Positions 1 through 35,602 are shown, numbered from the stretch's first letter. The stretch: 64,000 nucleotides of DNA from Planctomycetota bacterium (GCA_038212275.1 JBBQUR010000012.1:93115-157114), one strand, 5' to 3'. Translations and numbers: made by a program. The notes: generated by a model not told the origin, from the sequence alone.

Positions 1-75
1 CAGGAAGAGCGCGTCGTCGTCGGACAGCTGGGCGCCGTCCGCGACCTTGGAGGAGATGCTGGCAAGTGTGGGCAT
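1..75 (-). CDS. partial CDS (first 25 codons; continues past window start), unknown protein
   Basis: Minus-strand ATG at 75..73 reads MPTLASISSKVADGAQLSDDDALFL with G/C-rich third positions; truncated by the window edge so absent from the ORF track. Confidence 0.3.
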   Translation of the reverse strand, partial: MPTLASISSKVADGAQLSDDDALFL

Positions 76-164
76 GCGCGAAGCGTTATAACGTCCCGCA
101 TCGGAGGAGGCACGGGCTCGACCGGGCGCGGCCATCCGGCGAGGCGTCTAGCGGGAGCATCGTC

Positions 165-3155
165 ATGGTTGGCACATCGGGGAAGGCTCGTCGCACGTCG
201 CGAACGATGGTCGCGTGCGTCGTCGCGGTCGCGCTCCTGTGCATCGGGCTGGCGTGGTGGATGAGCGGCGACGCGCCGACGGACCTCGGGCGTTCGTCAC
301 CACTGCGCTCCGCGGAACGCGCAGCGGATCATGCCGACCTGCCCTTCACTGACGCCGGGCAGCACGCGCCGGAGTCGGCGACGGGATCGCTGCCGAAGCT
401 GTCTCCGGCGCCGACGCAGGCCTTGACCGCAAGCTCCGGGTCGGCGGCGCCCTGGGCCCGGCTGATCGGGCGCGTGCTGCGTCCGGATGGCACGCCGGCC
501 GCGGATGTGAACGTCGTGCATCCGTTGCAGCCGGGCGTGAACCTCGCCGGGCAACTTCGTGACAACCCTCCGCGCACGGCAGCCGACGGCAGTTTCGAGA
601 TCGGGATCGGCCAGACCGGCACCGCGCCGGGTGCATCGCTCATGCTGCTCGACGGGCCGCCGGCCTCACGCGTTCTGGTGCACGTGCCGGCACCGCACGC
701 AGGCGACAACGACCTCGGTGACGTCGTCCTCGCGGACGGCGCCGGACTCTCCGGCCGCATCGTGGACCCGGACGGGCTGCCGGTGGCTCGCGCCTACGTG
801 ACGGTGCGCGCTCCGAGCGACCGCGACAACGGGGGCGAGCTCTTCGACGGGAACCCCGACGACGTCGCCTGGCAGAACCTCGCGGCGGCGTTCACCTCCG
901 ACGACGGCCGCTTCCTCCTCACAGGCCTGCCCGCCGCCGAGATGGAACTGTACGCCCGTGCCGACGGATTTCAGGAATACACGCTACGCGGCCTCGCTCC
1001 GCGACGCGCGGAGCTCACGGAGCTGGGCGACCTCGCGCTGAGCGAGGGCCGCGTGCTGTCGGGCGTGCTGCTCGACGCGGACGGCGCGCCGGTCGCGGGC
1101 CGGCAGGTCATGGCGTGGGCCGAGCGGTCCTTCCCGCGCGGCTCCACCGAGGCGCGCGTCGACCTGGGCCGGACGTCGGGTTTCACGCTGAGCGACGCGC
1201 TGGGCGGCTTCCGCATCGCGGGTCTGCAGCCCGGCGTGTACGAGCTGGACGCGTGGGCCGAGGGCCACGCCTTCACGCGCCTGCACGACGTGGCCGACGA
1301 GCAGCGCGATGTCGTGCTGCGCCTGCGGCGTGCGGGTCGCGTGCTGCTCACGCTGCGCGACGCACGCACGCAGGCGCCGCTCGGCGCTGCAGAGGTCGAG
1401 GCGAGCATGGCGCCGCGCACCGGAGGTGGATACTCGTCCGACAACGCGTACGTCGTCACCGCCGGTGCCGACGCGGGCTTCGCCGAAGGCATGTATGTGG
1501 TGGACGGCCTGGGCGATGACACCACGATCCTCAGCGTGAGCAGGGAGGGCTACTCGCCTTCGAGCGCGACGATCGAAGGCCTCGCTCCGGGCCAGCAGCG
1601 CGAACTGCTGCTCGACCTCGCGCCGCGCGTCGTGCTCTCCGGAGTCGTGCAGGACCAGTTCGAGCAGCCGGTCGCCGGAGCGATGGTCCAGGCCGGAGCG
1701 CACGCCGGGCCCGCGACAGGCACTCCGACACGCATGCGCCGTCCCCCGGAAGACGGCCGGTTCCGCTTCGACGATCTGGCTATCGGGAGCTGGCAGGTGT
1801 GGGCGTACGCGCCAGGGCACGGCAAGGCCGACAACTACGCGGTCGAGATTCCGCCGGAGGGGCTCTCCGACGTGATCGTGTTCCTGCCGGTGCTGGGCCG
1901 TGCGGCGGGGCTCGTCACGGCGAGCGACGGCACGGCCATGCCCGGAGCGAGCGTCGTCGCGGCGGAGGTGGAGGCGATGCCCTTGCGCGGCGCGCCGCCG
2001 CACGCGGGCCGCATCGTCATCGGCCCGAGAGACTCGCATGAGAAGGGCGCGGCGGCCACGTGCGATGCCGACGGCCGCTTCGTTGTCGACGGCCTCTGGC
2101 CCGGCACGTGGTTGATGGCCGCCACGCTCGGGCCGCCGGCGGAGGCCAGGGCGCGGCTGGCGTCGCTCGCGGCAGCCGAAGCGGCAGCGCTTGCCTCACC
2201 GGGCCGGCCACTCGCGGTGGTGGGCGCCGACGTGCGCCGCGTCACCATCGTGGATGGCGAGGCGACGAGCGCAGACCTCGTGGTGCCGGTGCCCGCGCAG
2301 CTCCGCGGCCGCGCGCTGTCGGACGGCCGGCCGATCGCCGGCGCGCGCGTCGTGCTCGGTGCGTTGAATGGCGACAGCGCCACCGTCCTCGCGTCCACCG
2401 ACACCGATGCCGACGGAGGTTTTGAGTTCTCGCCGGTCGCGCCCGGGCAGTGCGTCGTGATGGCCTCCAGCCCGGACGAGATCGTTCCGCGCGGGCGCCG
2501 CGTGGCGCTGCACGACGGCGAGCAGGCCTACGTCGAGCTCTCGTTCCACGGACCCACATTGCACGGCGTCGTCGTCGACGAGTCGAGCGGGCGCCCCGTC
2601 GGCGACGTGGACGTGAGCGCCTACGCCAGCAAGCTGTACGCGGGCGACGGCCTCACGCTGGCCGACCTCGATCAGAAGGCGATGCAGGTGCTCAGCTCGG
2701 CCGGCCTCCGAGGCACGACGTTCCGCGCCGACGCTCAGGGCCGCTTCGAGATCCCGCACCTCCCGCCCGGCCAGTGGGTCTGCTTCGCAGAGGGTGACCG
2801 ATGGCTCCCGGCGGACAACGTCCGCGTCGAGCTGCCGGACGACTGGACACCCGATTCCATCAAGCTGCCGGTCACGGCCGGCGCGCTCGTGCAGGGCAGC
2901 ATCCGCTACGCCTTCGGAGGCGGGTGGCCGCCCTCCGTGGAGGTGCAGCTCTACGCTCCGGAACGCGACGGCATCGTGAAGCTCGACCATCCGCGAGACG
3001 GTCACTACCTCATCGGCGGCGTGACGCCCGGCACCTACGAGTTGCGTCTGCGCGACCTGCAGCCGGGGAAGAATGCGCCGTACGTCGTGGCCGTGCCGGT
3101 CACGCTGGCCGCCGGCGCGGTCGTCACGGTGGACCTGATTTACGAAGACTCGTGA
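165..3155 (+). CDS. membrane-anchored large protein with at least six carboxypeptidase-regulatory-like (CarbopepD_reg / Ig-like beta-sandwich) repeats
   Basis: ORF 66..3155; internal ATG at 165 (aa34) precedes basic stretch KARRTSR plus hydrophobic helix VACVVAVALLCIGLAWW; repeated G(R/V)(V/I)xDxxGxPxAxAxV motifs (GRVLRPDGTPAADVNVV, GRIVDPDGLPVARAYVTV, SGVLLDADGAPVAGRQVMA, GRALSDGRPIAGARVVLG, HGVVVDESSGRPVGDVDVS). Confidence 0.7.
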   Translation: MVGTSGKARRTSRTMVACVVAVALLCIGLAWWMSGDAPTDLGRSSPLRSAERAADHADLPFTDAGQHAPESATGSLPKLSPAPTQALTASSGSAAPWARLIGRVLRPDGTPAADVNVVHPLQPGVNLAGQLRDNPPRTAADGSFEIGIGQTGTAPGASLMLLDGPPASRVLVHVPAPHAGDNDLGDVVLADGAGLSGRIVDPDGLPVARAYVTVRAPSDRDNGGELFDGNPDDVAWQNLAAAFTSDDGRFLLTGLPAAEMELYARADGFQEYTLRGLAPRRAELTELGDLALSEGRVLSGVLLDADGAPVAGRQVMAWAERSFPRGSTEARVDLGRTSGFTLSDALGGFRIAGLQPGVYELDAWAEGHAFTRLHDVADEQRDVVLRLRRAGRVLLTLRDARTQAPLGAAEVEASMAPRTGGGYSSDNAYVVTAGADAGFAEGMYVVDGLGDDTTILSVSREGYSPSSATIEGLAPGQQRELLLDLAPRVVLSGVVQDQFEQPVAGAMVQAGAHAGPATGTPTRMRRPPEDGRFRFDDLAIGSWQVWAYAPGHGKADNYAVEIPPEGLSDVIVFLPVLGRAAGLVTASDGTAMPGASVVAAEVEAMPLRGAPPHAGRIVIGPRDSHEKGAAATCDADGRFVVDGLWPGTWLMAATLGPPAEARARLASLAAAEAAALASPGRPLAVVGADVRRVTIVDGEATSADLVVPVPAQLRGRALSDGRPIAGARVVLGALNGDSATVLASTDTDADGGFEFSPVAPGQCVVMASSPDEIVPRGRRVALHDGEQAYVELSFHGPTLHGVVVDESSGRPVGDVDVSAYASKLYAGDGLTLADLDQKAMQVLSSAGLRGTTFRADAQGRFEIPHLPPGQWVCFAEGDRWLPADNVRVELPDDWTPDSIKLPVTAGALVQGSIRYAFGGGWPPSVEVQLYAPERDGIVKLDHPRDGHYLIGGVTPGTYELRLRDLQPGKNAPYVVAVPVTLAAGAVVTVDLIYEDS

Positions 3156-3197: not shown

Positions 3198-4919
3198 TCA
3201 CGGCGTGATCTCGAGTTCCGCCACCGGAGTCCAGCGCGCGGCGAGGCTCGCGCCGTCGGCCTCGCCGCGCGGGATGGCCAGCGTCTGCACGAAGGCGCGG
3301 CCGGGCGACAGCGGGGGCACGGGCAGGCGCGCCACGCCGTCGTCTCCCGCGACGAGCAGCGGCTGCACGGGCACGGTGGTCGCGGCATCCAGCCACCAGG
3401 CGCCGCGCAGCGACCAGTCCGGCACCTCGCGCAGCGTCGTGGCGACGAAGACCTGGTAGCGGTCACCCGGCCGCCCGCGGATGGTGAGCGCACGCGGCTG
3501 GCCCGGCTCCGAGACAAGCCGCACCTGCGGTGAAAAGCGCGCCAGCGCACCGGCCCGCAGGGCGCAGCCTCGCGCCGCCTGCACGACGACATCGGACAGG
3601 CCTGCGGCATTGGTCATCAGCGTGCCTTGCACCGTGTCGGGCGTGATGGCGTGCAGGTCGAGCAGCGGCGCGCCGCCGACGATCACGGCCGGCAGCGGTT
3701 GCGAGTCCGACCAGCCCGAGAGCGTGATCGTCAGCGGTTCATCGCCGAAGATGCTCGCGACGTCGGGTGTCACGGAGACGATCGTCATGCCGCCGGACGG
3801 GTCGGCCGCGAGCGCCACGGCGAGGGGGGAAGGCAGTGCCGGCGCGCTGCCGGGCACCACGGAGCCGTCGGGCTCGGTACGCAGCAACTCCGCGATCACG
3901 GCGTCCGCGATCGGCGGCGCCAGCGCGGCCGTGGCTTCCGGCGAAGGGTGCACGTAATCCACGAAAAAGTTCGCGAGGTCCCGGTGCGTGGCCTCCAGCA
4001 GCGCCTGCCCGTCCAGCGCCGGGACGCCGGCGGCGCGCGCCGCGGCCAGCACCGCCTCGGCGTCCTCCGCCACGCGCGGATGTTCGTCGATCGTCTTGAG
4101 CGGGTGCGGCGCCGACATGACCACGCAGCGCGCCCCGGCTGCAGCACAGGCCGCGATCATCGCGGACACGTTGGCGCCGACGTCCCCGGCACTCACGCGG
4201 AAGCCTCGCGGCGGGCTGCCCGCCATCCAGCCGTCCATGATCTCCTTGAGCGGCACGCCTTCGAGCTTGCGCAGCACCGCGGCGCCGACGCGCGTGTGCA
4301 TGCGCAACCAGTCCAGCGGCGTGGGGTCGGACAGCTCGGCGAGCAGCTCGCGGTCGGGGCGACGCAGCGCCGGCGCCTGGTCGTTCCACGCGGCGGGGTA
4401 GAGCACCACCGCATCGGGATGCAGCGTGTCGAGCGCCTCCTGCAGCAGCAGTTGCAACTGCACGGTGGAGTAGCCGGGCACGCCGAGGCTCAGCACCGCG
4501 ACGCGATCGGCGGTGAGCCCGCGCGCGGTGAGCGCATCCTGCACGCGCGTGCCGAGCATGTTGGCGGCATCCACCGAGGCGCCGTAGACGCACGAGTCCC
4601 CGACGAGCACGACGCGCAGCAGCGTCGGCGGCGCGGGTTCCGGGGGGCGGCCGCGGAAGGCCCAGCTGCCGGTCGCGTCGCGGCCCAGGTGCTCGGGGCC
4701 GTGGCGGTGATCGGCGGCGAGGGTGTAGAAACGCCCGGCGTGCGTGACGTAGCGGCCCTCGGGGTCCTCGGCGACGGCGCGCGTCACGCGCTTGAATTGG
4801 AACTCGCGCGGATCCCGCACGAGGCCGCTGGCCCACAGGCCCAGCTCGGCCATGGCCAGCAGGACGAGCAGCAACCCGGAGAAGAGCAGGGTGCGCGCAA
4901 TCCACGGACGCCGGAGCAT
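3198..4919 (-). CDS. membrane-anchored SGNH/GDSL-family hydrolase with C-terminal beta-rich (IPT/Ig-like) region
   Basis: ORF 3198..5150 minus; internal start M78 (MLRRPWIARTLLFSGLLLVLLAMAEL = signal anchor) at 4919; VVLVGDSCVYGAS block typical of SGNH hydrolase serine motif (GDS). Confidence 0.65.
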   Translation of the reverse strand: MLRRPWIARTLLFSGLLLVLLAMAELGLWASGLVRDPREFQFKRVTRAVAEDPEGRYVTHAGRFYTLAADHRHGPEHLGRDATGSWAFRGRPPEPAPPTLLRVVLVGDSCVYGASVDAANMLGTRVQDALTARGLTADRVAVLSLGVPGYSTVQLQLLLQEALDTLHPDAVVLYPAAWNDQAPALRRPDRELLAELSDPTPLDWLRMHTRVGAAVLRKLEGVPLKEIMDGWMAGSPPRGFRVSAGDVGANVSAMIAACAAAGARCVVMSAPHPLKTIDEHPRVAEDAEAVLAAARAAGVPALDGQALLEATHRDLANFFVDYVHPSPEATAALAPPIADAVIAELLRTEPDGSVVPGSAPALPSPLAVALAADPSGGMTIVSVTPDVASIFGDEPLTITLSGWSDSQPLPAVIVGGAPLLDLHAITPDTVQGTLMTNAAGLSDVVVQAARGCALRAGALARFSPQVRLVSEPGQPRALTIRGRPGDRYQVFVATTLREVPDWSLRGAWWLDAATTVPVQPLLVAGDDGVARLPVPPLSPGRAFVQTLAIPRGEADGASLAARWTPVAELEITP

Positions 4920-5124
4920 GCCGCGCGACCCTAGCACAGGGAGGCGACCGCCGAAGGGACGAGTCGTCGGCGATCGGGCCGCATGCCCTCGTCTTGATCG
5001 TCGTCGCGGCGCGGCCCAGAATGCGCCGCCCGGCGGTGGCCGATGCGGAAGGGAGCGCGCAGCGCGGCCCGCGCATGCTCCGCCGGCCGGGCCAGCCCCC
5101 GGAGCCGACGTGCCCGCGACCTCG

Positions 5125-6534
5125 ATGGAACAGATCGTCAACCTCGCCAAGCGGCGCGGCTTCGTGTTTCCCGCCAGCGAGATCTACGGCGGCCTGAGCT
5201 CCTGCTGGGACTACGGCCCGCTCGGCGTGGAACTCAAGCGCAACGTGAAGGATGCCTGGTGGCGTTCGATGGTCTCCACGCGCCGCGACGTCGTGGGCCT
5301 CGACAGCGCCGTGCTGCAGCACCCGCAGGTCTGGCGCACATCCGGCCACGTCGACAACTTCAGCGACCCGCTCGTGGACTGCCGCAAGTGCAAGGCACGC
5401 TTCCGCGCCGATGACCTCGAGAACGCGAAGTGCAGCCAGCGCCACGACGCGCCGATCAACGACGAGTGCAAGTCGAACTTCACCGCGCCGCGCGCCTTCA
5501 ACCTGATGTTCAGCACGCACCTCGGGCCGGTGGAGGGTGAGGGAAGCCTGGCCTATCTGCGCCCCGAGACCGCGCAGGGCATCTTCACGAACTACCTGAA
5601 CGTGCAGACCACCGCGCGCCTCAAGCCGCCTTTCGGCGTGGCGCAGATCGGCAAGTCCTTCCGCAACGAGATCACGCCCGGCAACTTCATCTTCCGCACG
5701 CGCGAATTCGAGCAGATGGAGATGGAGTACTTCGTGCCGCCCGCGGACTGGGAACGCTGGTTCGACTACTGGCGCGACGCGCGTTTCCAGTGGTACGTGG
5801 ACCTCGGCGTGAACCCGGACAATCTGCGTCGCCGTGATCACGAGAGCACGGAACTCGCGCACTACAGCAACGCGACGACGGACATCGAGTACCGGTTTCC
5901 GATCGGCTGGAAGGAGCTCGAAGGGGTCGCGTCGCGCACGGACTTCGACCTCAAGCGGCACAGCGAAGCCTCGGGCAAGCAGCTCGAATACTTCGACGGG
6001 CAGACGCGCGAGCGCTTCATGCCCTGGGTCATCGAGCCCGCGGCCGGCGTGGACCGCGCCCTGCTGGCCTTCCTCGCCGACGCCTTCGAGGAGCAGAACG
6101 TGGCCGGCGCGGAGAAGGCGACCTCCGAAAAGGCGAGCTCCGACAAGCCCGGTGCCGACAAGGCCAGCGCCGACAAGACCGAAGGCGGCAAGGACGAGGA
6201 AGACATCCGTACGGTGCTGCACCTGCATCCGCGCCTCGCTCCGATCAAGGTGGCCATCTTCCCGCTGGTGAAGAAGGAAGGCATGCCGGAGTTCGCGAAC
6301 AAGCTGGAAGAGGAGCTGCGCCGGCACGGCGTGTCCACCTTCTACGACCAGTCCGGCGCCATCGGGCGGCGCTACCGCCGGCAGGACGAGATCGGCACGC
6401 CGTGGTGCGTGACCGTGGATGGCGAGTCCGCCGCCAACGGCAGCGTCACGCTGCGCGATCGCGACAGCATGAAGCAGGAGCGCATCGCCGCAACATCGCT
6501 CGCCGCCCTCGTGGCGGAGAAGCTGACCGGATGA
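5125..6534 (+). CDS. glyQS: glycine--tRNA ligase, dimeric class II (GlyQS type)
   Basis: MEQIVNLAKRRGFVFPASEIYGGLSSCWDYGPLGVELKRNVKDAWW... matches alpha2-type GlyRS N-terminus; start ATG aa112 of ORF 4792..6534; carries K/D/A-rich low-complexity insert around 6100..6200. Confidence 0.95.
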   Translation: MEQIVNLAKRRGFVFPASEIYGGLSSCWDYGPLGVELKRNVKDAWWRSMVSTRRDVVGLDSAVLQHPQVWRTSGHVDNFSDPLVDCRKCKARFRADDLENAKCSQRHDAPINDECKSNFTAPRAFNLMFSTHLGPVEGEGSLAYLRPETAQGIFTNYLNVQTTARLKPPFGVAQIGKSFRNEITPGNFIFRTREFEQMEMEYFVPPADWERWFDYWRDARFQWYVDLGVNPDNLRRRDHESTELAHYSNATTDIEYRFPIGWKELEGVASRTDFDLKRHSEASGKQLEYFDGQTRERFMPWVIEPAAGVDRALLAFLADAFEEQNVAGAEKATSEKASSDKPGADKASADKTEGGKDEEDIRTVLHLHPRLAPIKVAIFPLVKKEGMPEFANKLEEELRRHGVSTFYDQSGAIGRRYRRQDEIGTPWCVTVDGESAANGSVTLRDRDSMKQERIAATSLAALVAEKLTG

Positions 6535-6609
6535 GCGCACGACGATGACTCGGCGGGCCAGCCGCGGACTGCGCGCAGCGTGGCGGCGCCCGGCGCCGGG
6601 CGGTGCCGC

Positions 6610-8400
6610 GTGAAGGCACGACGGGCGCGTGGCGGCGGCAAGCTGGTCGTCACGGGGCAACCCATGGCGCCGGGGCTCGCCGTCGGCACGCCGCTCTTCC
6701 ACGGCGAGCTGGACGTGGACATCCCCGTCCGCACGATCCGCGAGGCGGACGTGCCGGCCGAGCATCGGCGCTTGCGCGAGGCGATGGCAGTGGCCCGCAC
6801 GCAACTGGCCGAGGTCGAGCGCCGCATCGAAGAGCAGGTCGGCGCAAGCGACGCGCGCATCTTCTCGGTGCAGGGGCTGTTGCTCGAAGACCCGTCCTTC
6901 GGGACCGGCATCGAGGAGCGCATCAGCGAGGGCCTCGTCAACGCCGAGGTCGCCGTGCGCGACGAGGTCACCTCGTGGAGCGCCCGCCTCAAGGCTGTCT
7001 CGGCCGGTGATGGCCGCGACGCCGGCACCGACCTGCGGGACGTGGGGCGCCAGCTGCTGCGCGTGCTCGTCGGCCACAACGCCGCCGTGACGCTCGGTGA
7101 CGGCACGGAGCGCGTGGTGCTGGTGACGCGCGAGCTGCTGCCGAGCGATGCGGCCGTCATGGACCGCGCGCGCCTCGCGGCCATCGTCACGGCGAGCGGC
7201 GGCGCGGCGAGTCACGCGGCCATCCTCGCGCGCAGCCTCGGCATTCCCGCCGTCACGGGAGTGGACGTCATGGCGCTGCCTGCGCGCGGCGGCCACTGGA
7301 TCGTGGATGGCAGCGCGGGGCTGGTCATCGTCAACCCGACGACGGCCGACCTGGACCTCGCGGCGCAGAAGAGCCAGGACTACCAGCAGTTCCGTCACGA
7401 GCTCATGGCGCAGGCACGCGGCTTCGCGTGCACGGCCGACGGCGTGGCCATCGAGCTGCTGCTCAACGTGGAGAACTTCGAGGAGCTGCCCGCGGAGCTG
7501 CTCGACGACCTGCGCGGCGTCGGCCTCTACCGCACCGAATTTCTCTTCATGCACCGGCCGTCCTTCCCCAGCGAGGAAGAGCAGTTCCGGCACTACGTCA
7601 ACGCGCTGAAGCGTGTCGGCGACAGCGAGATCACCTTCCGCACCATCGACGTCGGCGGCGACAAGCCGCTGCCCTATCTCTCCGTCCCGAGCGAGCCCAA
7701 TCCCGTGCTCGGCTGGCGCGGCATCCGGCTGTCGCTCGAGTGGCCGGACATGTTCTACAGCCAGATGCGCGCGCTGCTGCGGGCCTCGGCCCACGGGCAC
7801 ATCCGCATCCTGCTGCCGATGATCACGATGGTGGAGGAGTTCCGCCGCGCGCGCGCGATCATGTCCGAGATCCAGTCCGACCTGCGCCGGCGCGGCGTGC
7901 CCTTCGATACGGACGTGCCGCTCGGCGCGATGGTGGAGGTGCCGGCCGCGGCCCTCGCGGCGCGCAGCCTCGCCGAGGAGGCCGACTTCCTCTCCATCGG
8001 CACGAATGACCTGTCGCAGTACGCGCTGGCGGTGGACCGGAACAACGCGCGCGTCGCGTCGCTCTACCAGCCGCTGCACCCGGGCATCCTCAACCTCGTG
8101 CGCATGGTCGTGCAGGCTGCGGACGCGACGGGGACGCCGGTCTCGCTCTGCGGCGAGATGGCCGGCGACGCGGAGGCCACGCTGCTGCTGCTCGGCATCG
8201 GGCTGCGATCGTTCAGCATGTCGCCCTATCACCTGCCCGTGGTGAAGCGCGTCATCGGCGTCGTCTCGCTGGACGAGGCGCACGCCGTCGCGCACGAGGT
8301 CATGGAGCTGGGCAGCACCACCGAGGTCCGCGCGACGCTGCGACGGCACACGCTGCGGCTCGTCCCCGAACTGGCCGCGTGGCTCGCGCCGGAACGTTGA
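6610..8400 (+). CDS. ptsI: phosphoenolpyruvate-protein phosphotransferase (PTS enzyme I)
   Basis: SGGAASHAAILARSLGIPAVTG (phosphohistidine region) and FLSIGTNDLSQYALAVDRNNARVASLYQPLHPGILNLV (PEP-utilizer C-terminal signature); GTG at 6610 chosen so the N-terminus aligns with EI (alt ATG 6664). Confidence 0.9.
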   Translation: MKARRARGGGKLVVTGQPMAPGLAVGTPLFHGELDVDIPVRTIREADVPAEHRRLREAMAVARTQLAEVERRIEEQVGASDARIFSVQGLLLEDPSFGTGIEERISEGLVNAEVAVRDEVTSWSARLKAVSAGDGRDAGTDLRDVGRQLLRVLVGHNAAVTLGDGTERVVLVTRELLPSDAAVMDRARLAAIVTASGGAASHAAILARSLGIPAVTGVDVMALPARGGHWIVDGSAGLVIVNPTTADLDLAAQKSQDYQQFRHELMAQARGFACTADGVAIELLLNVENFEELPAELLDDLRGVGLYRTEFLFMHRPSFPSEEEQFRHYVNALKRVGDSEITFRTIDVGGDKPLPYLSVPSEPNPVLGWRGIRLSLEWPDMFYSQMRALLRASAHGHIRILLPMITMVEEFRRARAIMSEIQSDLRRRGVPFDTDVPLGAMVEVPAAALAARSLAEEADFLSIGTNDLSQYALAVDRNNARVASLYQPLHPGILNLVRMVVQAADATGTPVSLCGEMAGDAEATLLLLGIGLRSFSMSPYHLPVVKRVIGVVSLDEAHAVAHEVMELGSTTEVRATLRRHTLRLVPELAAWLAPER

Positions 8401-9134
8401 GCGGCGGAGCCGGCCCCGGCACCGTTGTCCTGCTGCACGGACTCAACCGCACGCAGCTCTCCATGGCGCCGCTCGCGTGGAGGCTTCGGCGCGCGGGCTA
8501 TCGCACGACCAACCTCTACTATCCGAGCCGCAGGCGCGGCATCGACGAGCACGCCGAAACGCTGCTGGCCCGACTGCGCCGCGAGCATGTCGCCGACGAC
8601 GGGCCTTTCCACTTCGTCGGCCACAGCCTGGGATGCATCGTGACGCGCGCCGCGCTGCAACGCTGCGCCCCCGACGACCTGCCGCGAAACCGTCCGGGGC
8701 GCTGCGTGATGCTCGGGCCGCCCAACCACGGCAGCGAACTGGCGCAGGCGCTCCACGGCTCGCGCTTCTGGCGCGTCGTGTACGGCGAGCGGGCCTTCCG
8801 CGAACTGGCCACGCGCGAACTCATCGAGGCCTACGGGACGCCGCCGCTGCCGTGCGGCATCATCGCCGGCGCGCGGGGCGACGGGCGCGGCTGGAATCCA
8901 GCACTTCCCGGCGACGACGACGGCGTCGTCACGCTCGATGGCACGCACCTTCCCGGCGAAGCGGATCATCTCGTGCTGCACGCGGTGCACACCGTGTTGC
9001 CGTGGAAGCGCGAGACCGCGCGGCAGGTGCTCGCCTTCCTCGCCACCGGACGCTTCGCTAGGATGCCCGCGACGACCTCGCCGCACGCCGGGCGCGTGCC
9101 GCACGACCCTTCCGCTCCGGAGACCGAACGATGA
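8379..9134 (+). CDS. alpha/beta-hydrolase fold protein (lipase/esterase-like, GHSLG nucleophile elbow)
   Basis: VVLLHGLN ... FHFVGHSLGCIVTRAAL; start overlaps end of ptsI by 22 nt; stop overlaps next start (ATGA). Confidence 0.7.
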   Translation: MARAGTLSGGAGPGTVVLLHGLNRTQLSMAPLAWRLRRAGYRTTNLYYPSRRRGIDEHAETLLARLRREHVADDGPFHFVGHSLGCIVTRAALQRCAPDDLPRNRPGRCVMLGPPNHGSELAQALHGSRFWRVVYGERAFRELATRELIEAYGTPPLPCGIIAGARGDGRGWNPALPGDDDGVVTLDGTHLPGEADHLVLHAVHTVLPWKRETARQVLAFLATGRFARMPATTSPHAGRVPHDPSAPETER

Positions 9135-9733
9135 TCCGTCCGACGATGCTGCTGTGCTGCGCCGCCATCCTGCCCGCGCTGCTGTCCTGCTCCGCATCGC
9201 GCGAGTCGGAGCACCCGCGTCCGACGACGATCAGCGAGAAGGCGCCGCGCTGGACCTTCGATCCGGCCTCGGGCTGGGACGAGGAGGCGCAGCCCTTCGT
9301 CTATTACGCCACGGGACGCGCGGCCATCCACCTGAACCTGGACCTGGCCGAGGAGAACGCGAAGGCCGACGCGCTGGCCGACGTGCAGTCCTTCCTGGAG
9401 ACGACGATCGAGAGGCTCAACGAAGGCTGGGCCAGCGAGGCCGGCGACCTGCTCGACCGCAACGCGCTCACCTCGTACATCAACGATGAGCAGTTCACGC
9501 GCGAGGTCATCTCCGGCTCGCTGTCCGGCGCGCGCGTCATCGGCAGGTGGAACGATGACAACTACTACTACATCTGGGTCAAGTACAACGCCGAGGACGC
9601 CTTCCTCGGCAACTACACCAAGAGTGTCGCGAGCCGGCTCAAGGAGCAGACCCGCGAGATGACCACCGCGGATCGCGAGCGCATGCGCAAGGAACTCGAG
9701 CGGGTCGTTGCGGATCGGAACGCGCAGCAGTGA
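9131..9733 (+). CDS. LPP20-like lipoprotein
   Basis: Signal peptide with lipobox LLSC; LNLDLAEENAKADALADVQSFLETTIERL resembles LPP20-family core; ATGA overlap with upstream and downstream genes. Confidence 0.6.
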   Translation: MIRPTMLLCCAAILPALLSCSASRESEHPRPTTISEKAPRWTFDPASGWDEEAQPFVYYATGRAAIHLNLDLAEENAKADALADVQSFLETTIERLNEGWASEAGDLLDRNALTSYINDEQFTREVISGSLSGARVIGRWNDDNYYYIWVKYNAEDAFLGNYTKSVASRLKEQTREMTTADRERMRKELERVVADRNAQQ

Positions 9734-10206
9734 CCGAGGCGTGCGCCGCTCCGGCGGCGACGGGCACGCCGGCTGCGAAGGACGCGCCTGCTGTGAAGGA
9801 CGCGCCGGCTGTGAAGGACGCGCCGGCTGCGACGCGGTGGCTCGTGCTCCTGCTCGGACTCGTTCTCTGCGTCTCGAGTGTCGGCTGCGCCAGCTGTCCC
9901 CCGGCCTGGGTGGACAGCCCGCCCGAGTCGGACGATGCGCTCTACGCAAGCGGCTCGTGCGGCGAGGTCTTCGTGGATGCGGACGCGCGCCAGATCGCGC
10001 TGACGCGTGCCGCGCGCCGCCTGGCTGACCGGCTGGGGCTGGACGTCGAGCCGCGCATGGCGGTCGTCTACGCGGATGGCCGGCTCTTCGTGGAAGCCGT
10101 GACGCCCGGTGGGCCGACCGACGCGCTGGACGGCCTTCAGCTGGTGGAGCAGGTCGTGTGCGACCACGTGACCTTCGTGCTCGTGCGCCTGCCGCGCCGC
10201 GGCTGA
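9730..10206 (+). CDS. lipoprotein, second LPP20-like domain protein, with (KDAPAV)x3 N-terminal repeat
   Basis: Lipobox-like VSSVGC after hydrophobic segment; ...ARQIALTRAARRLADRLGLDVEPRMAVVYADGRLFVEAV pattern similar to preceding gene; ATGA start overlap. Confidence 0.55.
   Translation: MTEACAAPAATGTPAAKDAPAVKDAPAVKDAPAATRWLVLLLGLVLCVSSVGCASCPPAWVDSPPESDDALYASGSCGEVFVDADARQIALTRAARRLADRLGLDVEPRMAVVYADGRLFVEAVTPGGPTDALDGLQLVEQVVCDHVTFVLVRLPRRG
9775..9828 (+). repeat. 18-bp x3 in-frame tandem repeat (gtgaaggacgcgccggct) encoding KDAPAV x3
   Basis: Three consecutive near-identical 18-nt units read directly from sequence. Confidence 0.8.
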
Positions 10207-10520
10207 TGGCTCCCGGAGCGCGCAGCATCCGCGGCGCGATGGGCGCCTATGCGGCGGCAGGCGTCGTCGCCGTGGCGCTGCTGGCGCTCGTCCTGTGGAT
10301 CGGCGGGCCGGAGCCGGAGCGCAGTTTCGTCGCGCTGCCCGGGGACTCGCCGTGGGCCTCCGCCGCGCTTGACGATGGCCGCAGCCTGCGCACGGTGCTG
10401 CGCGGCCAGCGCATCGAGGCGCCGCCAGCGCACTACCGGGTGACCTTGCTCGACGCGGAGGGCCGCAGCGAAGAGCGCGCACTGGAGGTCAACGGGCCGC
10501 TGACCACGCTCCTGCCTTGA
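10206..10520 (+). CDS. small single-pass membrane protein
   Basis: ATG at 10206 overlaps upstream TGA (TGATG); MAPGARSIRGAMGAYAAAGVVAVALLALVLWIGG hydrophobic helix; last gene of co-directional run. Confidence 0.5.
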   Translation: MAPGARSIRGAMGAYAAAGVVAVALLALVLWIGGPEPERSFVALPGDSPWASAALDDGRSLRTVLRGQRIEAPPAHYRVTLLDAEGRSEERALEVNGPLTTLLP

Positions 10521-10568
10521 TCGCGCGCTCGTGCAGACCGCGTTCTCGCCCCGACCACGCCTTCGCTC

Positions 10569-10652
10569 AGGCCAACCACGCAGGCGCTCAGGCCAACCGC
10601 GCAGGCGCTCCGACCAACCGCGCAGGCGCTCAGCTCAACCACGCAGGCGCGT
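10569..10652. repeat. 21-bp x4 direct tandem repeat (caggccaaccacgcaggcgct consensus) in convergent intergenic gap
   Basis: Units at 10569-10589, 10590-10610, 10611-10631, 10632-10652 with 1-3 mismatches each; lies between stop of 10206..10520(+) and stop of 10677..12608(-). Confidence 0.8.
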
Positions 10653-10676
10653 TGACCTCGCGGTCGGGCGGAACGC

Positions 10677-12608
10677 TCAGCGCGGCTGCGCGGAACGCTC
10701 CGCCAGCGTCAGCGCGACGGGCAGGTCCTGCTCGGGGCTTAGGGTCACGTGCGCGCGCCCCTCGAACTGGAGCGCCTCCCACAGGTTGCCCGGAGTCGCC
10801 ACGACGTCGTACTCGCCGGGCGGCAGCGCCAGCATGCGGAAAGCGCCCTCGCCGTCGGTGACGGTCTGCTGCTGGTGCATGGCCGAGGTGACGCCGATGC
10901 GCACGCCGGCACGCGGCCGTCCGTCGGGGCCGATCACGTTGCCGGACAGCGTGCAGCCGAGCGGGAGCGTGAGCGCGCCGACGTCCGTGTCCACCTCGTC
11001 GGTCACACGCACGTCCCGGACATGCAGCGGCGGCGCGTCGGCAGGGCGGGCCGACAGCGTGTAGGTACCCGGCGGCACGTGCTGCAGCAGGAAGCTGCCG
11101 TCGGCGCCGGTGAGCACCATGAGCCCGTGCACGGGCGCCGTCGGAAAGGTGGACTCGAGCGACAGCGAGGGGTCGTAGTCGGCTTCGCGAAGCTCGATGC
11201 GCGTGCCGGCCTGGGCCGGCTGCACGCGGCCCTTCACGCTGCCGCCGCGCAGCAGATACACCTCGAGGCGGGCGACGGGCACGTCGGCGCCGAGGATCAC
11301 GTCCGAGCTGGTCGTGACGGCGAAGCCTTCGGCGTAAATCTCGAAGCGATAGCTGCCGGGGCGCAGACCGTCGAACACGAACGAGCCCGGCGGGCTCGTC
11401 TCGCGGAAGGCTCGGTCCATCGGGCCCGTGCCGAGCAGTCCCGCGCCGGAACGGCCGTCCGGGCGGAGGCGCACGCTGAACTCGGCCGGCGGAGTCGTCG
11501 CGCAGCGCAGCTGGCCATCGACGGCGAGCGCGGGCTGCACGCGCACCGTGTGCTCGTCGCCGTCGGCAGGCAGTTGCAGCGTGTGATCCAGGTACACGAG
11601 CGGCGACTGCACCTCGATGTCGTACAGGCCGCTGGCCATGTCGGACATCGCGAAGCGCCCATCGGCGCCCGTGGTCGTCGTCTGCAGGCGGTAGGTGTTC
11701 TGCGCGCGCTGCCGCTGCGAGACGCGCAACGTGAGCCCGGCCACCGGCTTTTCGAAGCTGTCGAGGACGAGTCCGCGGAGCGACGCGTCCGCCTTTTCGA
11801 GTCGGAAGTCCTGCCGCCAGCGGCCATCGGACGTGCCGAGCACCATCGAGAGCACCAGGGTCACCGGAGCGTAAGCGTCGGCGTCGGCCACGACCTCGTA
11901 CTGGCGCAGCGCGAGGTGCGCGAAGGTGTAGTTGCCCTCCGCGTCCGTGAGCGCCGAGAGCGGAACGGCAGGCGTCGCACCGCGTTGCTCGCGCTGCAGG
12001 TCCGTGAGCTTGACGACGGCGCCCTCGATCGGCTTTCCGGCGTCGTCCGTCACCGTGCCCAGCAGCAGCAGGCCGTCTTCCAGCAGGATGTCTCCGAGGT
12101 CGCGCAGCTCGCCCGCGCCGATGGTGAACGGCTCGCGCAGCACGGGCGCATGGTCGGCGTGCTCGACTTCGATGCCGAGCTCGGAGGTCACCGGCAGCGT
12201 CGCGAACAGAAAGCGGCCGTCCGTGCCCGAGGTGATGGCGGCGCCCTGGTCCTCGCGCGTGCGATAGGGCTGGCCCGGCCCGCTCAGAAAGGCCGTCACG
12301 CTCGCGCCGGGAATCGGCCTGCCGGTGCGGTCGATGACGCGGCCGGCAGCTTGCGCAAGCGCCGGGCCGCGCGCGGAAAGGACCTGAGGCGTCGCCGGGG
12401 CCGCGGCAGAAGGTGCGCGGCTGTCACCGGGCGACTCAGTGGGCCGCGGCAGCACGGCCGGGCTGGCGGGGCCGGGAGCAGGATCGTTCTGGACGGTGCC
12501 CGGCGTGGTGGGAGCCTGATCTCCGTCCGCACGCAGCATCCACCAGGCGCCGCTCAGCAGCGCGAGCACCAGAGTGCAGATGAGCAGAAGTGAGGCGCGC
12601 GAGTTCAC
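10677..12608 (-). CDS. membrane-anchored protein with multiple CarbopepD_reg-like repeats (paralog of 165..3155)
   Basis: N-terminal anchor MNSRASLLLICTLVLALLSGAWW; repeats GRVIDRTGRPIPGASVTAF, GTVTDDAGKPIEGAVVKL, GLVLDSFEKPVAGLTLRV, GNVIGPDGRPRAGVRIGV. Confidence 0.7.
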   Translation of the reverse strand: MNSRASLLLICTLVLALLSGAWWMLRADGDQAPTTPGTVQNDPAPGPASPAVLPRPTESPGDSRAPSAAAPATPQVLSARGPALAQAAGRVIDRTGRPIPGASVTAFLSGPGQPYRTREDQGAAITSGTDGRFLFATLPVTSELGIEVEHADHAPVLREPFTIGAGELRDLGDILLEDGLLLLGTVTDDAGKPIEGAVVKLTDLQREQRGATPAVPLSALTDAEGNYTFAHLALRQYEVVADADAYAPVTLVLSMVLGTSDGRWRQDFRLEKADASLRGLVLDSFEKPVAGLTLRVSQRQRAQNTYRLQTTTTGADGRFAMSDMASGLYDIEVQSPLVYLDHTLQLPADGDEHTVRVQPALAVDGQLRCATTPPAEFSVRLRPDGRSGAGLLGTGPMDRAFRETSPPGSFVFDGLRPGSYRFEIYAEGFAVTTSSDVILGADVPVARLEVYLLRGGSVKGRVQPAQAGTRIELREADYDPSLSLESTFPTAPVHGLMVLTGADGSFLLQHVPPGTYTLSARPADAPPLHVRDVRVTDEVDTDVGALTLPLGCTLSGNVIGPDGRPRAGVRIGVTSAMHQQQTVTDGEGAFRMLALPPGEYDVVATPGNLWEALQFEGRAHVTLSPEQDLPVALTLAERSAQPR

Positions 12609-12617
12609 CGCGCCAGT

Positions 12618-12830
12618 CTAAGCACCCGCGTCAGCCGACGCACGGCGGCGCACGAACGAGTTCCAGGTGTAGTAGGACTCGGCGTGCTCCCGGCTCATCG
12701 GCTTGCCGAGGCACCGGTCGCGCTCGCAGCGGCGGCGACCTTCGTCGTCCACCACGATGACCTGCAGTTCGCGATCGAGGATCGCGCGCCATTCGTCGTA
12801 GGTCATCTCGATCGAGCAGTCATGGCCCAT
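12618..12830 (-). CDS. small hypothetical protein (70 aa, Cys-containing)
   Basis: ORF with strong GC3 bias immediately upstream of the CarbopepD-repeat gene on the same strand; RRCERDRC motif; no recognisable family. Confidence 0.35.
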   Translation of the reverse strand: MGHDCSIEMTYDEWRAILDRELQVIVVDDEGRRRCERDRCLGKPMSREHAESYYTWNSFVRRRASADAGA

Positions 12831-18341: not shown

Positions 18342-19265
18342 ATGACCATGCGAAGATCAACCCTGCACCGTCATCGCGCGGGCCTGCTGTTCCTGGCGCT
18401 CGTGCTGCCAGGTGCGCCTGCCTTTGCGCAGGACGACGGTCGCCCCCCCGAAGGCACGGACTCGGCCCAGTCCGCCGAGGCGGCTGCCCAGGCTGCCGAT
18501 GCCGCTGCCATGGGTGCCGTCGAGATCATGGACGCGGCACTGAACGACCGCGACCCGGCAAAGATCAAGCCGGTGTTCACCACGCTCGACGAGCAGTGGG
18601 CGAACCTGTCGCCGAAGACCATCAAGCGCGTGAACAAGTCGATCAGCGGGATGTTCGCGAAGCTCAAGCCGCGTGAATCGCGCGACATCGACACGCTGGG
18701 CGAGGACGCGAAGAACGGCCGCTTCGACCCGGAAGAAGGCAGCCGGAGACTTGCCACCGACACGCAGAAGCAGGACGTGCTCGACTGCTATCACTCGGCG
18801 ATCGGCCTGCTGTACGACAAGCCGGACGGCCCCGCTGTGCTGCTGCCAGTTCTCAAGTTGCAGCACGTGAAGGTCTGGCCCGACGTGCAGGTGCTGGTGC
18901 TCGAAGGCCTCGGCTATCGCGGAGAGGGGGCGCTCGAGAAGGAATTCGAAGGCTATCTGCGCCACGAGAATCCGGCGGTCGCGTCCGCCGCCGCGAGCGC
19001 GATGGGACATCTGCAGGACCAGCCGATGGATGTTCGTCGCCGCGCCGTGACCGCGCTGGTGGATGCGTTCAGCGCCGCACAGAAGGCTTCCGACAAGGAG
19101 GCCTCGAAGGTCGGCGAGGACGACGAGCGCCCCGCGCGTCGCTATTACTCCAGCGTGATGCTCGCGTTCCGGGAAGCGCTCACATCCCTGACGCGCCAGT
19201 CGTTCGACAAGCCCCCCGAATGGCGCGAGTGGCTCGACGCTCACGGCAAGGATGCCTCCTGGTGA
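18342..19265 (+). CDS. secreted protein with HEAT/PBS-lyase-like repeats
   Basis: MTMRRSTLHRHRAGLLFLALVLPGAPAFA signal peptide (aa76 of ORF 18117..19265); alpha-helical repeat-like ENPAVASAAASAMG segments. Confidence 0.55.
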   Translation: MTMRRSTLHRHRAGLLFLALVLPGAPAFAQDDGRPPEGTDSAQSAEAAAQAADAAAMGAVEIMDAALNDRDPAKIKPVFTTLDEQWANLSPKTIKRVNKSISGMFAKLKPRESRDIDTLGEDAKNGRFDPEEGSRRLATDTQKQDVLDCYHSAIGLLYDKPDGPAVLLPVLKLQHVKVWPDVQVLVLEGLGYRGEGALEKEFEGYLRHENPAVASAAASAMGHLQDQPMDVRRRAVTALVDAFSAAQKASDKEASKVGEDDERPARRYYSSVMLAFREALTSLTRQSFDKPPEWREWLDAHGKDASW

Positions 19266-19861
19266 GTGTCTGGGGTCTGATCCGCACCAGGCTGATCAAC
19301 CCGCTCGTCCGGGCGCAGGGCACGCCCAAATCGATTGCGCGCGGAACCGCGCTCGGCACGTGGCTCACGCTCACGCCGACCGTCGGCATCCAGATGACCA
19401 TCGCCGCGTTCATCGGCATTCCGTGGGGAGCGAACATGCCGATCGCGATCGCCATCATCTGGCTCTCCAACCCCTTCACGATCATTCCGCTCTACTACAG
19501 CTACTACTGGTTCGGGACAGTGCTCCTTCCCGGCCCGGCGCGCTCCTACGCCGACGTGACGGACGCGGTGAGAGTGCGCATCGAGGCCGTCACGCAGCAC
19601 GGCGAGGGCGTCCTGACGGCATTGCGGACGCTGGGGGCGGACATCGGCACCCCGATGGTCGTGGGCTCTCTGGTCATCGCCACGGGGATTGCCGTTCCGG
19701 CGTACTTCATCACGCTGCACTGGGCGCAACGGCGGCAGGCGCGAAGGCAGCGGGAACACGAGGCGGCGGGCGCCGTCCAATCGCCTGTCGTCCCGCCGAC
19801 GGGTTTCGGTGGGCCACTTCCGCCCGCCGTGCCCGGCACCCCGAAGGCCAGCAGCCCGTGA
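19262..19861 (+). CDS. DUF2062-family membrane protein
   Basis: GTG at 19262 overlaps upstream TGA (GTGA); RGTALGTWLTLTPTVGIQMTIAAFIGIPWGANMPIAIAIIWLSNPFTIIPLYY matches DUF2062 topology/motifs. Confidence 0.65.
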   Translation: MSVWGLIRTRLINPLVRAQGTPKSIARGTALGTWLTLTPTVGIQMTIAAFIGIPWGANMPIAIAIIWLSNPFTIIPLYYSYYWFGTVLLPGPARSYADVTDAVRVRIEAVTQHGEGVLTALRTLGADIGTPMVVGSLVIATGIAVPAYFITLHWAQRRQARRQREHEAAGAVQSPVVPPTGFGGPLPPAVPGTPKASSP

Positions 19862-31303: not shown

Positions 31304-32203
31304 TCAGCCGAACAGTCGTTGGTAGAGCGCGAACAACTCCGCAGCCGTGCCGGGGTGGCTGCTGTCGCTGATGGTGGCCGCGTCCATTGCCGCGACGGTG
31401 GCGAGCCACACGCCGACGATGAAGAGTGCAGCGGCGAGCACCTTCGTGATGTCGCTCGCTCGAATCGTGCCTACGAGTCCCGGCTCGCGCGTCAGGTACG
31501 CGGTGACGGCGAAGTACTCCTCTCCCATGATCGTGTAGTCGCACGCGGCGACGAAGAACGGCAGCTGCTCGTACCGCGCCGTGCCTGCCAGCTGGATCGC
31601 GCCCGTGCCGTAGCCCGTCTCGGCGAGGATGAGCGACTCCGCGAAGAACATGCCCATCATCACGTTGGCCGCCGGCTTTTCGCGATTCATGATGCCCGCG
31701 ATGCCGGCGCAATACGCGAACTGCTCGTCGGAGAGGTAGCGCACGTTGTCCGGAATGAACGCGTCAGGGCGCCCTGCGTCGGCGCAGCCCTGCTTGACCG
31801 CCTCTTCCGCGAACGCGAGCACGACCGAGTTCTTGACCGGCACGATGATGGGTGTCCCGAACTCCGCCGCCTTGCGTGCGACGTGCCTCAGAATCATCAT
31901 CGAATAGATCGTCTGGATCTCCTTGATCTCGTCCGTGCCCGGCACGTACAGCACCGGCCTGCCCATCTCGGTGGCGCGACCGATGGCCTCGTCCAGCGCG
32001 TCGAGTCCGTTGATGCGCCGGATCTCGATCTTCTCGCCGCGGCGCGCGCGCCGTTGCTGGAAGAACATGATCGCGCCGAACGCCAGGATGGCCACGAGCG
32101 TCGGCAGCTTGTTGGTGGCGACCCAGGGGCCGAGGTCAAGCGCCCGCTCGTTGAGCCAGCGAGTGATTGCTTCGACCCATGTCGCGCCGGAAGAAACATC
32201 CAT
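31304..32203 (-). CDS. membrane-anchored protein with cytoplasmic domain (cluster gene D)
   Basis: One N-terminal and one C-terminal hydrophobic helix; start codon shares 1 nt with gene E stop. Confidence 0.55.
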   Translation of the reverse strand: MDVSSGATWVEAITRWLNERALDLGPWVATNKLPTLVAILAFGAIMFFQQRRARRGEKIEIRRINGLDALDEAIGRATEMGRPVLYVPGTDEIKEIQTIYSMMILRHVARKAAEFGTPIIVPVKNSVVLAFAEEAVKQGCADAGRPDAFIPDNVRYLSDEQFAYCAGIAGIMNREKPAANVMMGMFFAESLILAETGYGTGAIQLAGTARYEQLPFFVAACDYTIMGEEYFAVTAYLTREPGLVGTIRASDITKVLAAALFIVGVWLATVAAMDAATISDSSHPGTAAELFALYQRLFG

Positions 32204-35304: not shown

Positions 35305-35305
35305 G

Positions 35306-35602
35306 TCAGTTCTCCTGATGAGTTTTCCGGCGCCGGTGTTCACCCTCGGCCTCATCGATGATGCGGATGAACTCGGGAATGGCCTCGCGACGTTCGAGCA
35401 GCCGCGCCAGTTCGTCGATTCGCGTCGCCGGAATCCCGGCGCGCCAGACAGGGGACACCACGTGCAGCATCGAGGCCGTGACGAGGTTCATGGGAGACAC
35501 CGTTTCAAGCAGCATCATGGCCGGGACCGCAAGCCTCCTCGCGACGATCGAACGGGCGGCCTCCTCCATGAGGGTCCTCTCCCGTTCCGAAAACTGACTC
35601 AT
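35306..35602 (-). CDS. small soluble protein (98 aa) (cluster gene G)
   Basis: MSQFSERERTLMEEAARSIVARRL...; ATG overlaps stop of gene H (ATGA); coding-like GC3. Confidence 0.45.
   Translation of the reverse strand: MSQFSERERTLMEEAARSIVARRLAVPAMMLLETVSPMNLVTASMLHVVSPVWRAGIPATRIDELARLLERREAIPEFIRIIDEAEGEHRRRKTHQEN

Follow-up and report, generated by a model that had tools for sequence, protein, structure and literature searches.

Two divergent LPP20-like lipoproteins in a variable gene cluster of a Planctomycetota clade, one of them a constant neighbor of a small membrane protein

What are two small lipoproteins encoded side by side in a planctomycete, and do they belong with the genes that adjoin them? 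The question arises from a 64 kb stretch of DNA (the window, here meaning all of the DNA that was analyzed) from a Planctomycetota metagenome-assembled genome (MAG), in which four co-directional open reading frames (ORFs) lie between positions 8379 and 10520. An earlier account made from the DNA alone, referred to here as the sequence-only reading, had described a coupled four-gene operon for an alpha/beta-hydrolase (ORF1), two LPP20-like lipoproteins (A and B, the products of ORF2 and ORF3) and a 104-aa membrane protein (ORF4). The four ORFs, the GHSLG motif of the hydrolase, the two lipoboxes, the membrane protein and a three-copy 18-bp repeat all lie where that account had put them. We find that A and B are divergent branches of the LPP20/SHS2-like superfamily, beyond the reach of curated models, and that the part of the cluster that stays constant among relatives is B together with ORF4, A and the hydrolase being accessory.

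Curated families recognize neither lipoprotein. The hidden Markov model (HMM) of Pfam PF02169 (LPP20, InterPro IPR024952; gathering threshold 25.9 bits), which the sequence-only reading had named as the check on its assignment, matches neither A nor B even at E ≤ 1; scans of Pfam and NCBIfam place A, B and ORF4 in none of their families, and the lone weak Pfam match of A is to FlgT_N (E 0.043). The relationship appears at the level of profiles. An exhaustive HMM search with an alignment of B over 1.84 billion representatives recovers 59 proteins at E ≤ 1e-3, ten of which reach E ≤ 1e-30, and PF02169 is carried, over the same residues, by 25 of 45 distant matches to the B profile (best E 1.7e-19). 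Seven such PF02169-matching proteins, three above the gathering threshold and four just below it, made up a reference set for hhalign from which signal peptides were removed; mature B aligns with this set at 99.4% (E 1.4e-21, 104 columns) and mature A at 96.0% (E 4.6e-9, 108 columns). Compared with the PDB, the seven-protein set itself finds HP1454 (E 4.6e-6), a 52-copy lipoprotein chain of 9yec that is presumably FlgP-like (E 5e-4) and, weakly, the annotated FlgP 8z5n_2 (E 0.24).

Two other candidate relationships were discarded. A full-length hhalign value of 86.5%, which had pointed to A and B as recent paralogues, came from the signal peptide and a PxW..YAxG motif and does not demonstrate direct paralogy. 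Matches of A, B and ORF4 to PDB sequences (a peripheral-subunit-binding helix of pyruvate dehydrogenase E2, H-NS and the FimD N-domain) proved to be motif-level coincidences at chance level. Both proteins carry a lipobox, assigned by motif, whose Cys is kept in 67 of 69 homologues of B and occupies a column at least 90% conserved among 11 aligned homologues of A.

Predicted structures lead to the same superfamily. The AlphaFold2 (AF2) model of B, with a predicted local distance difference test score (pLDDT) of 92.6, runs from a strand (43-50) through a helix (59-74), a hairpin (82-88/91-98) and a short strand (101-103) to two further strands (110-117 and 120-128). That of A (pLDDT 72.5; above 80 over most of 51-200 and about 60 at 101-120) has a strand (57-65), helices (70-104, 110-117 and 120-133), two strands (134-141 and 145-153) and two C-terminal helices. 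The models thus predict an SHS2-like core, in which one strand, a helix across one face and two more strands build a three-stranded antiparallel sheet, and such a core is common to FlgP, Lpp20, FlgT and dodecin (PMC12222027). In a Foldseek search with B, the top match is a chain of 106 residues, presumably FlgP, from the motor scaffold of Campylobacter jejuni (9HMF; E 3e-3, probability 1.0); HP1454 and FlgT come next, and Lpp20 is seventh. With structure, transitive homology and profile-profile comparison as three largely independent lines, the LPP20-like pattern that had been read in both lipoproteins is recovered by fold search as well as by profile-level homology. Literature searches on LPP20 in Planctomycetes and on DUF7379, the family nearest to the hydrolase, turned up nothing relevant.

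The two branches differ in what has been added to the core. In FlgP, the ring is built by an inserted beta-hairpin that follows the helix and precedes the second strand, and across the family ring formation correlates with an insert at this position (PMC12222027). By element order, the model of B places a beta-hairpin at the same point of the core; there A has helices, as does Lpp20, a three-stranded sheet with three flanking helices. The best-conserved parts of B are this hairpin (RLSVVxxDGRLFVEA) and the helix (ALTRAARRLAD), the pattern that an interaction surface would be expected to show.

Comparison with characterized proteins delimits these likenesses. Helicobacter pylori Lpp20 (HP1456), HP1454 and HP1457 (PF02169; PDB 5OK8, 4KZS) share 13-20% identity with the window lipoproteins and have their hosts among the Campylobacterota rather than the Planctomycetota; A, unlike this group, carries an extra conserved pair of C-terminal helices, and we know of no counterpart of the ORF4-type membrane partner in the hp1454-1457 operon. 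In FlgP, the basal-disk/H-ring lipoprotein (C. jejuni 9HMF; Vibrio 8Z5N), the elements follow one another as in B, hairpin insert included. B as modeled has shorter hairpin strands (7-8 residues), no extra C-terminal helix and no flagellar gene context. The N-terminal domain of FlgT (PF16548; PDB 3W1E, 8Z5N) is of the same fold class and among the top structural matches of both A and B, yet FlgT is a flagellar protein of three domains and about 350 aa that, unlike them, is not a lipoprotein. Neither Francisella FTT_1539c (4QVR) nor H. pylori Tip-alpha (3GIO) is related to A or B at the level of sequence; both are secreted proteins, of larger size or dimeric, with other elements added to the fold.

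The resemblance of B to FlgP, and of both lipoproteins to FlgT, raises the question of whether B, perhaps with A, serves as a flagellar accessory that forms an outer-membrane-associated ring or disk at the basal body of a motile stage. We consider this improbable. Lpp20, FTT_1539c and Tip-alpha, which are not flagellar, reach similarity scores just as good; no flagellar Pfam family occurs among 20 large genes of the window; and no flagellar gene stands beside the cluster in 14 related loci, where the called neighbors are glyS, ptsI, CarboxypepD_reg, TPR and xerC.

The window has a G+C content of 69%, with high third-position GC in the four ORFs, and the features of the cluster are arranged as follows.

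6580 to 8400, plus strand: ptsI, encoding enzyme I of the phosphotransferase system (PTS); Pfam PEP-utilizers_C, _N and mobile domain, E 3e-104.
8379 to 9134, plus strand: ORF1, alpha/beta-hydrolase; 251 aa from GTG 8379, 245 aa from TTG 8397.
9131 to 9733, plus strand: ORF2, lipoprotein A; 200 aa, with a signal peptide, the lipobox LLSC and an LPP20-fold domain.
9766 to 9819, plus strand: 18-bp tandem repeat in three near-perfect copies, within an array at 9747-9832 called by Tandem Repeats Finder (TRF).
9730 to 10206, plus strand: ORF3, lipoprotein B; 158 aa from 9730, or 9811 to 10206 from the latest start; lipobox SVGC, then ASCPPAW, with the mature domain beginning at the lipid Cys.
10206 to 10520, plus strand: ORF4, small bitopic membrane protein; 104 aa, one transmembrane (TM) helix.

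Inspection of the junctions largely bears out the start-stop overlaps that had been reported: ORF1 and ORF2 share ATGA (9131-9134) and ORF3 and ORF4 share TGATG (10204-10208), whereas the junction of ORF2 and ORF3 reads GTGA and not the ATGA claimed for it. The chain also extends further back. ORF1 overlaps the ptsI stop (8400) by 22 nt if it begins at GTG 8379, or through a TTGA overlap if it begins at TTG 8397, the start chosen by gene calling on L001, a contig of identical sequence; coupling therefore begins upstream of ORF1, at the ptsI stop. Because tight or overlapping junctions are common in operons, they do not by themselves exceed chance expectation, and in related loci adjoining genes may overlap by 4 nt or stand as much as 69 nt apart. 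Scanning 4500-11000 for promoters and terminators gave nothing informative.

Which genes belong together is better judged from relatives. We surveyed 14 distinct related loci by tblastn, taking a gene as always present when it occurs in every locus that extends far enough; a profile search of genome contigs used a 10-sequence alignment of B. By this measure the constant elements are ptsI upstream, B, ORF4 and a convergent gene with a six-fold CarboxypepD_reg product. Lipoprotein A occurs in 10 of the 14 loci and the hydrolase in six, solely where A occurs. After ptsI, six loci have all four genes and four have A, B and ORF4 but no hydrolase; the remaining four (L010, L016, L018 and L025) have B and ORF4 alone, with ptsI followed directly by B. 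The four-gene module of the sequence-only reading accordingly survives as a constant pair, B and ORF4, and not as a fixed unit of four. A also evolves much more rapidly than B: across the same loci, identity is 27-55% for A and 55-68% for B. The sources of all homologues are metagenomes or Planctomycetota MAGs, one of them labelled Phycisphaerales.

The same survey sets a limit on what adjacency can mean. In this clade the order of genes is kept from a GDSL-like protein, glyS and ptsI through the cluster to CarboxypepD_reg, an ORF of about 70 aa, TPR, a 54-aa ORF, xerC and trpE/pabB, and since the whole neighborhood is syntenic, adjacency alone is weak evidence for shared function. The four genes might then be unrelated neighbors, each acting alone, in a compact housekeeping region that a narrow clade has passed on by vertical descent. 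Consistent with this, the synteny from glyS to xerC and trpE/pabB extends in all relatives well past the four genes, A and the hydrolase come and go among loci, the other three proteins are exported but the hydrolase lacks a signal peptide, and the promoter and terminator scan gives no information. Against it, B and ORF4 adjoin in every locus, overlapping by 4 nt or separated by a short gap, even where B is only about 48% identical and amid varying neighbors; the two are confined to the same clade; and the H. pylori hp1454-hp1457 operon provides a precedent for multi-gene clusters of LPP20-fold proteins. We regard unrelated neighbors as an unlikely explanation, though one with a substantial residual chance. 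What argues better for a link is that B and ORF4 are constant and closely spaced even as nearby gene content changes.

ORF4 is predicted to have a positively charged cytoplasmic tail, GARSIRGAMGAY, one TM helix and a beta-rich periplasmic domain of about 65 aa, in which an alignment of 20 homologues reveals a PPxxYRVTL beta-hairpin motif. The tail (10206-10250, residues 1-15) is nearly invariant across the 20 homologues, and tblastn finds it kept even where gene callers begin the protein at an internal Met (L004, L014). Such invariance suggests a specific cytoplasmic contact or a processing signal. No Pfam family covers ORF4; six of the 20 members show a weak BiPBP_C match (best E 0.027), and the FimD N-domain matches at E 0.054. 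Kinship of ORF4, as a PEGA/CarboxypepD_reg-like domain, with the neighboring multi-CarboxypepD_reg protein was rejected, as a CarboxypepD_reg match appears in one of 20 members, at E 0.24.

The hydrolase is the least constant member of the cluster. Its sequence contains LLHGL (HG), VGHSLGC (GHSLG), GDDDGVV and HTVLPW, and the candidate oxyanion and triad residues are invariant in six homologues and occur in canonical order, as in an alpha/beta-hydrolase fold. No curated family exceeds its Pfam threshold and NCBIfam returns nothing; the best match, DUF7379, scores 31.4 bits against a cut-off of 33, with Thioesterase, Abhydrolase_6, Palm_thioest and DUF676 also below threshold, while in some orthologues the DUF7379 match is significant, the one in L005 being confident and precomputed. 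ORF1 shares HG, GHSxG, NHGS, Asp and His in canonical order with DUF7379, DUF676/PGAP1-like proteins and the N-domain of Legionella PlaB, differing in that it lacks the PlaB C-terminal domain and falls below every curated threshold. Because no signal peptide or TM segment is found in its sequence, the enzyme is probably cytoplasmic and functionally separable, and not obviously in the compartment of the lipoproteins.

These motifs invite a reading in which the hydrolase works with the lipoproteins as a unit that remodels lipids or lipoproteins; it would be a PlaB-like phospholipase or a thioesterase, with membrane lipids or the acyl chains of A and B as its targets. In favor of this are a weak PlaB-like stretch (HSxG...NHGS, E 0.35), the sub-threshold Palm_thioest, Thioesterase and DUF676 matches, the invariance of the catalytic candidates and the restriction of the gene to loci with A. 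All of these family matches are, however, sub-threshold, the protein lacks an export signal or membrane anchor, and the gene is missing from eight of the 14 loci, which keep B and ORF4 all the same; we judge a remodelling unit very unlikely. The hydrolase is more probably an accessory passenger of the operon, functionally separate from its neighbors.

Taken together, we lean, with only slight preference over its being wrong, towards a lineage-specific envelope gene set of this Planctomycetota clade in which lipidated B, joined in some members by A, acts as a scaffold, B self-associating, binding ORF4, or both. The core would be B and an inner-membrane-anchored ORF4 with its periplasmic beta domain, co-transcribed downstream of glyS-ptsI. 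Some lineages, that of the window included, would have acquired A as a second LPP20-fold lipoprotein, Lpp20/HP1456-like with a C-terminal helical extension, and a subset of these the cytoplasmic hydrolase between ptsI and A. Lipidated B and A would sit on a membrane surface facing the periplasm, which by the Escherichia coli rule would be that of the outer membrane, since neither has Asp at +2. By analogy with other LPP20-fold proteins both may serve as small protein-protein scaffolding modules, and B could use its conserved helix and hairpin to self-associate or to bind ORF4, linking an inner-membrane protein to a lipoprotein layer. The small envelope module proposed in the sequence-only reading is thus sensible as to location, with the exception of the hydrolase, which has no signal peptide and occurs in six of 14 loci.

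Several points weigh against this preferred reading. Neither A nor B has a direct match to PF02169, and hhalign of the two mature domains gives 6%, with no relation detected beyond PxW...YAxG. The synteny from glyS to xerC in a narrow clade means that adjacency may reflect ancestry as much as function. The Lol (lipoprotein localization) +2 rule is an E. coli rule, not established for Planctomycetota. Finally, the interaction of B with ORF4, oligomerization, the membrane assignment and any physiological role are matters that we infer.

A bolder version of the envelope gene set would have B assemble beneath the outer membrane into a ring or lattice that is not flagellar, tethered by ORF4 to the inner membrane, with the tail GARSIRGAMGAY coupling it to a cytoplasmic partner, in an unrecognized Planctomycetota envelope structure such as a component of the surface pits or pores; we give this version a very slight chance. 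The FlgP-like hairpin that the model predicts in a non-flagellar context is nevertheless the only lead here with upside: should B oligomerize through it as FlgP does, ring-forming LPP20 modules would exist outside flagella. The fold and superfamily are already known; the gain is at the level of annotation and not a new kind of system. Two uncatalogued and very divergent LPP20/SHS2-like branches, covered by neither Pfam nor NCBIfam, are added from a phylum with a poorly understood envelope architecture, and a constant pair of B and a small bitopic protein is defined.

The 18-bp repeat bears on where lipoprotein B begins. TRF reports it at 9747-9832 (period 18, 4.8 copies, score 116), and a pattern search finds the three adjacent near-perfect copies at 9766-9819 where 0.25 chance matches would be expected in the window; in the ORF3 frame it translates as (A)PAVKD. 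Every unit contains AAGGA, 10 nt and then GTG, and two units would supply a Shine-Dalgarno-like element and a candidate start codon. Candidate starts are GTG 9730, 9793 or 9811, which place the lipid Cys at position 53, 32 or 26, respectively. GTG 9730, at the GTGA junction, is probably not the start in use, because P0011, the NCBI-derived protein of the source genome (137 aa), begins at GTG 9793, within the repeat, and the Cys of 67 B homologues sits at a median position of 22.

The repeat had been put forward as a possible slippage-prone linker, an idea at odds with its placement. It precedes the hydrophobic core of the B signal peptide and would therefore be cleaved off or untranslated; and in the closest relatives, L023 and L008 (93% and 82% identical to the window in lipoprotein A), the N-termini of B are unrelated and the repeat is absent, the window having about 27 nt more in this region than L023. 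A phase-variable linker in mature B is excluded by this pre-signal-core position and by the absence in relatives. Position and unrelated N-termini together point to a strain-specific expansion in a hypervariable pre-signal region; as read from the sequence, the repeat leaves mature lipoprotein B unaffected. Short repeats occur elsewhere in the family. Several B homologues (P0018, P0025 and L010 6001-6408) have low-complexity C-terminal tails (PNAPHAPRAPRAP, EAEAEAEAEA and PPPEPEPEPASEPE), P0013 has a small N-terminal repeat, TGVTAVTGV, and the termini of the B family tend to short-repeat expansion in several lineages.

A second tandem repeat lies just beyond the cluster. It has a 21-bp period and about four copies at 10550-10654 (core CAACCACGCAGGCGCTCAG, TRF score 132), and falls in the convergent gap between the end of ORF4 (10520) and that of the CarboxypepD_reg gene on the minus strand (10677). 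The repeat is seen nowhere else in the window, where 0.09 chance matches would be expected, and may be a terminator or an element resembling repetitive extragenic palindromes (REP-like).

Among the flanking genes, two large multi-CarboxypepD_reg proteins and a GDSL-like lipase/acylhydrolase surround the cluster (coordinates listed for the three: 66-3155, plus strand; 3198-5150, minus; 10677-12608, minus), which may stand in a wider envelope-related neighborhood. The glycyl-tRNA synthetase ORF (4792-6534, plus strand), at 580 aa from TTG 4792, exceeds its homologues (437-452 aa) by about 130 aa and, as listed, overlaps the divergent GDSL-like gene; translation probably begins close to MEQIVNLAKRRGF instead. 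Two tiny ORFs keep their positions in relatives, one of 64-71 aa directly downstream of CarboxypepD_reg and the 54-aa ORF that comes after the TPR gene; neither has a Pfam family, and tiny-ORF positions are listed at 12618-12830 (minus strand) in the window and at 9220-9423 and 11023-11187 in L002. Elsewhere in the window, and unrelated to the cluster, are a DUF6754 protein (E 4e-105) beside an unassigned 276-aa ORF, a MutL-family (PF13941) protein and a DUF2062 protein, the coordinates listed for these genes being 31304-32203 (minus), 33340-35355 (minus) and 19220-19861 (plus).

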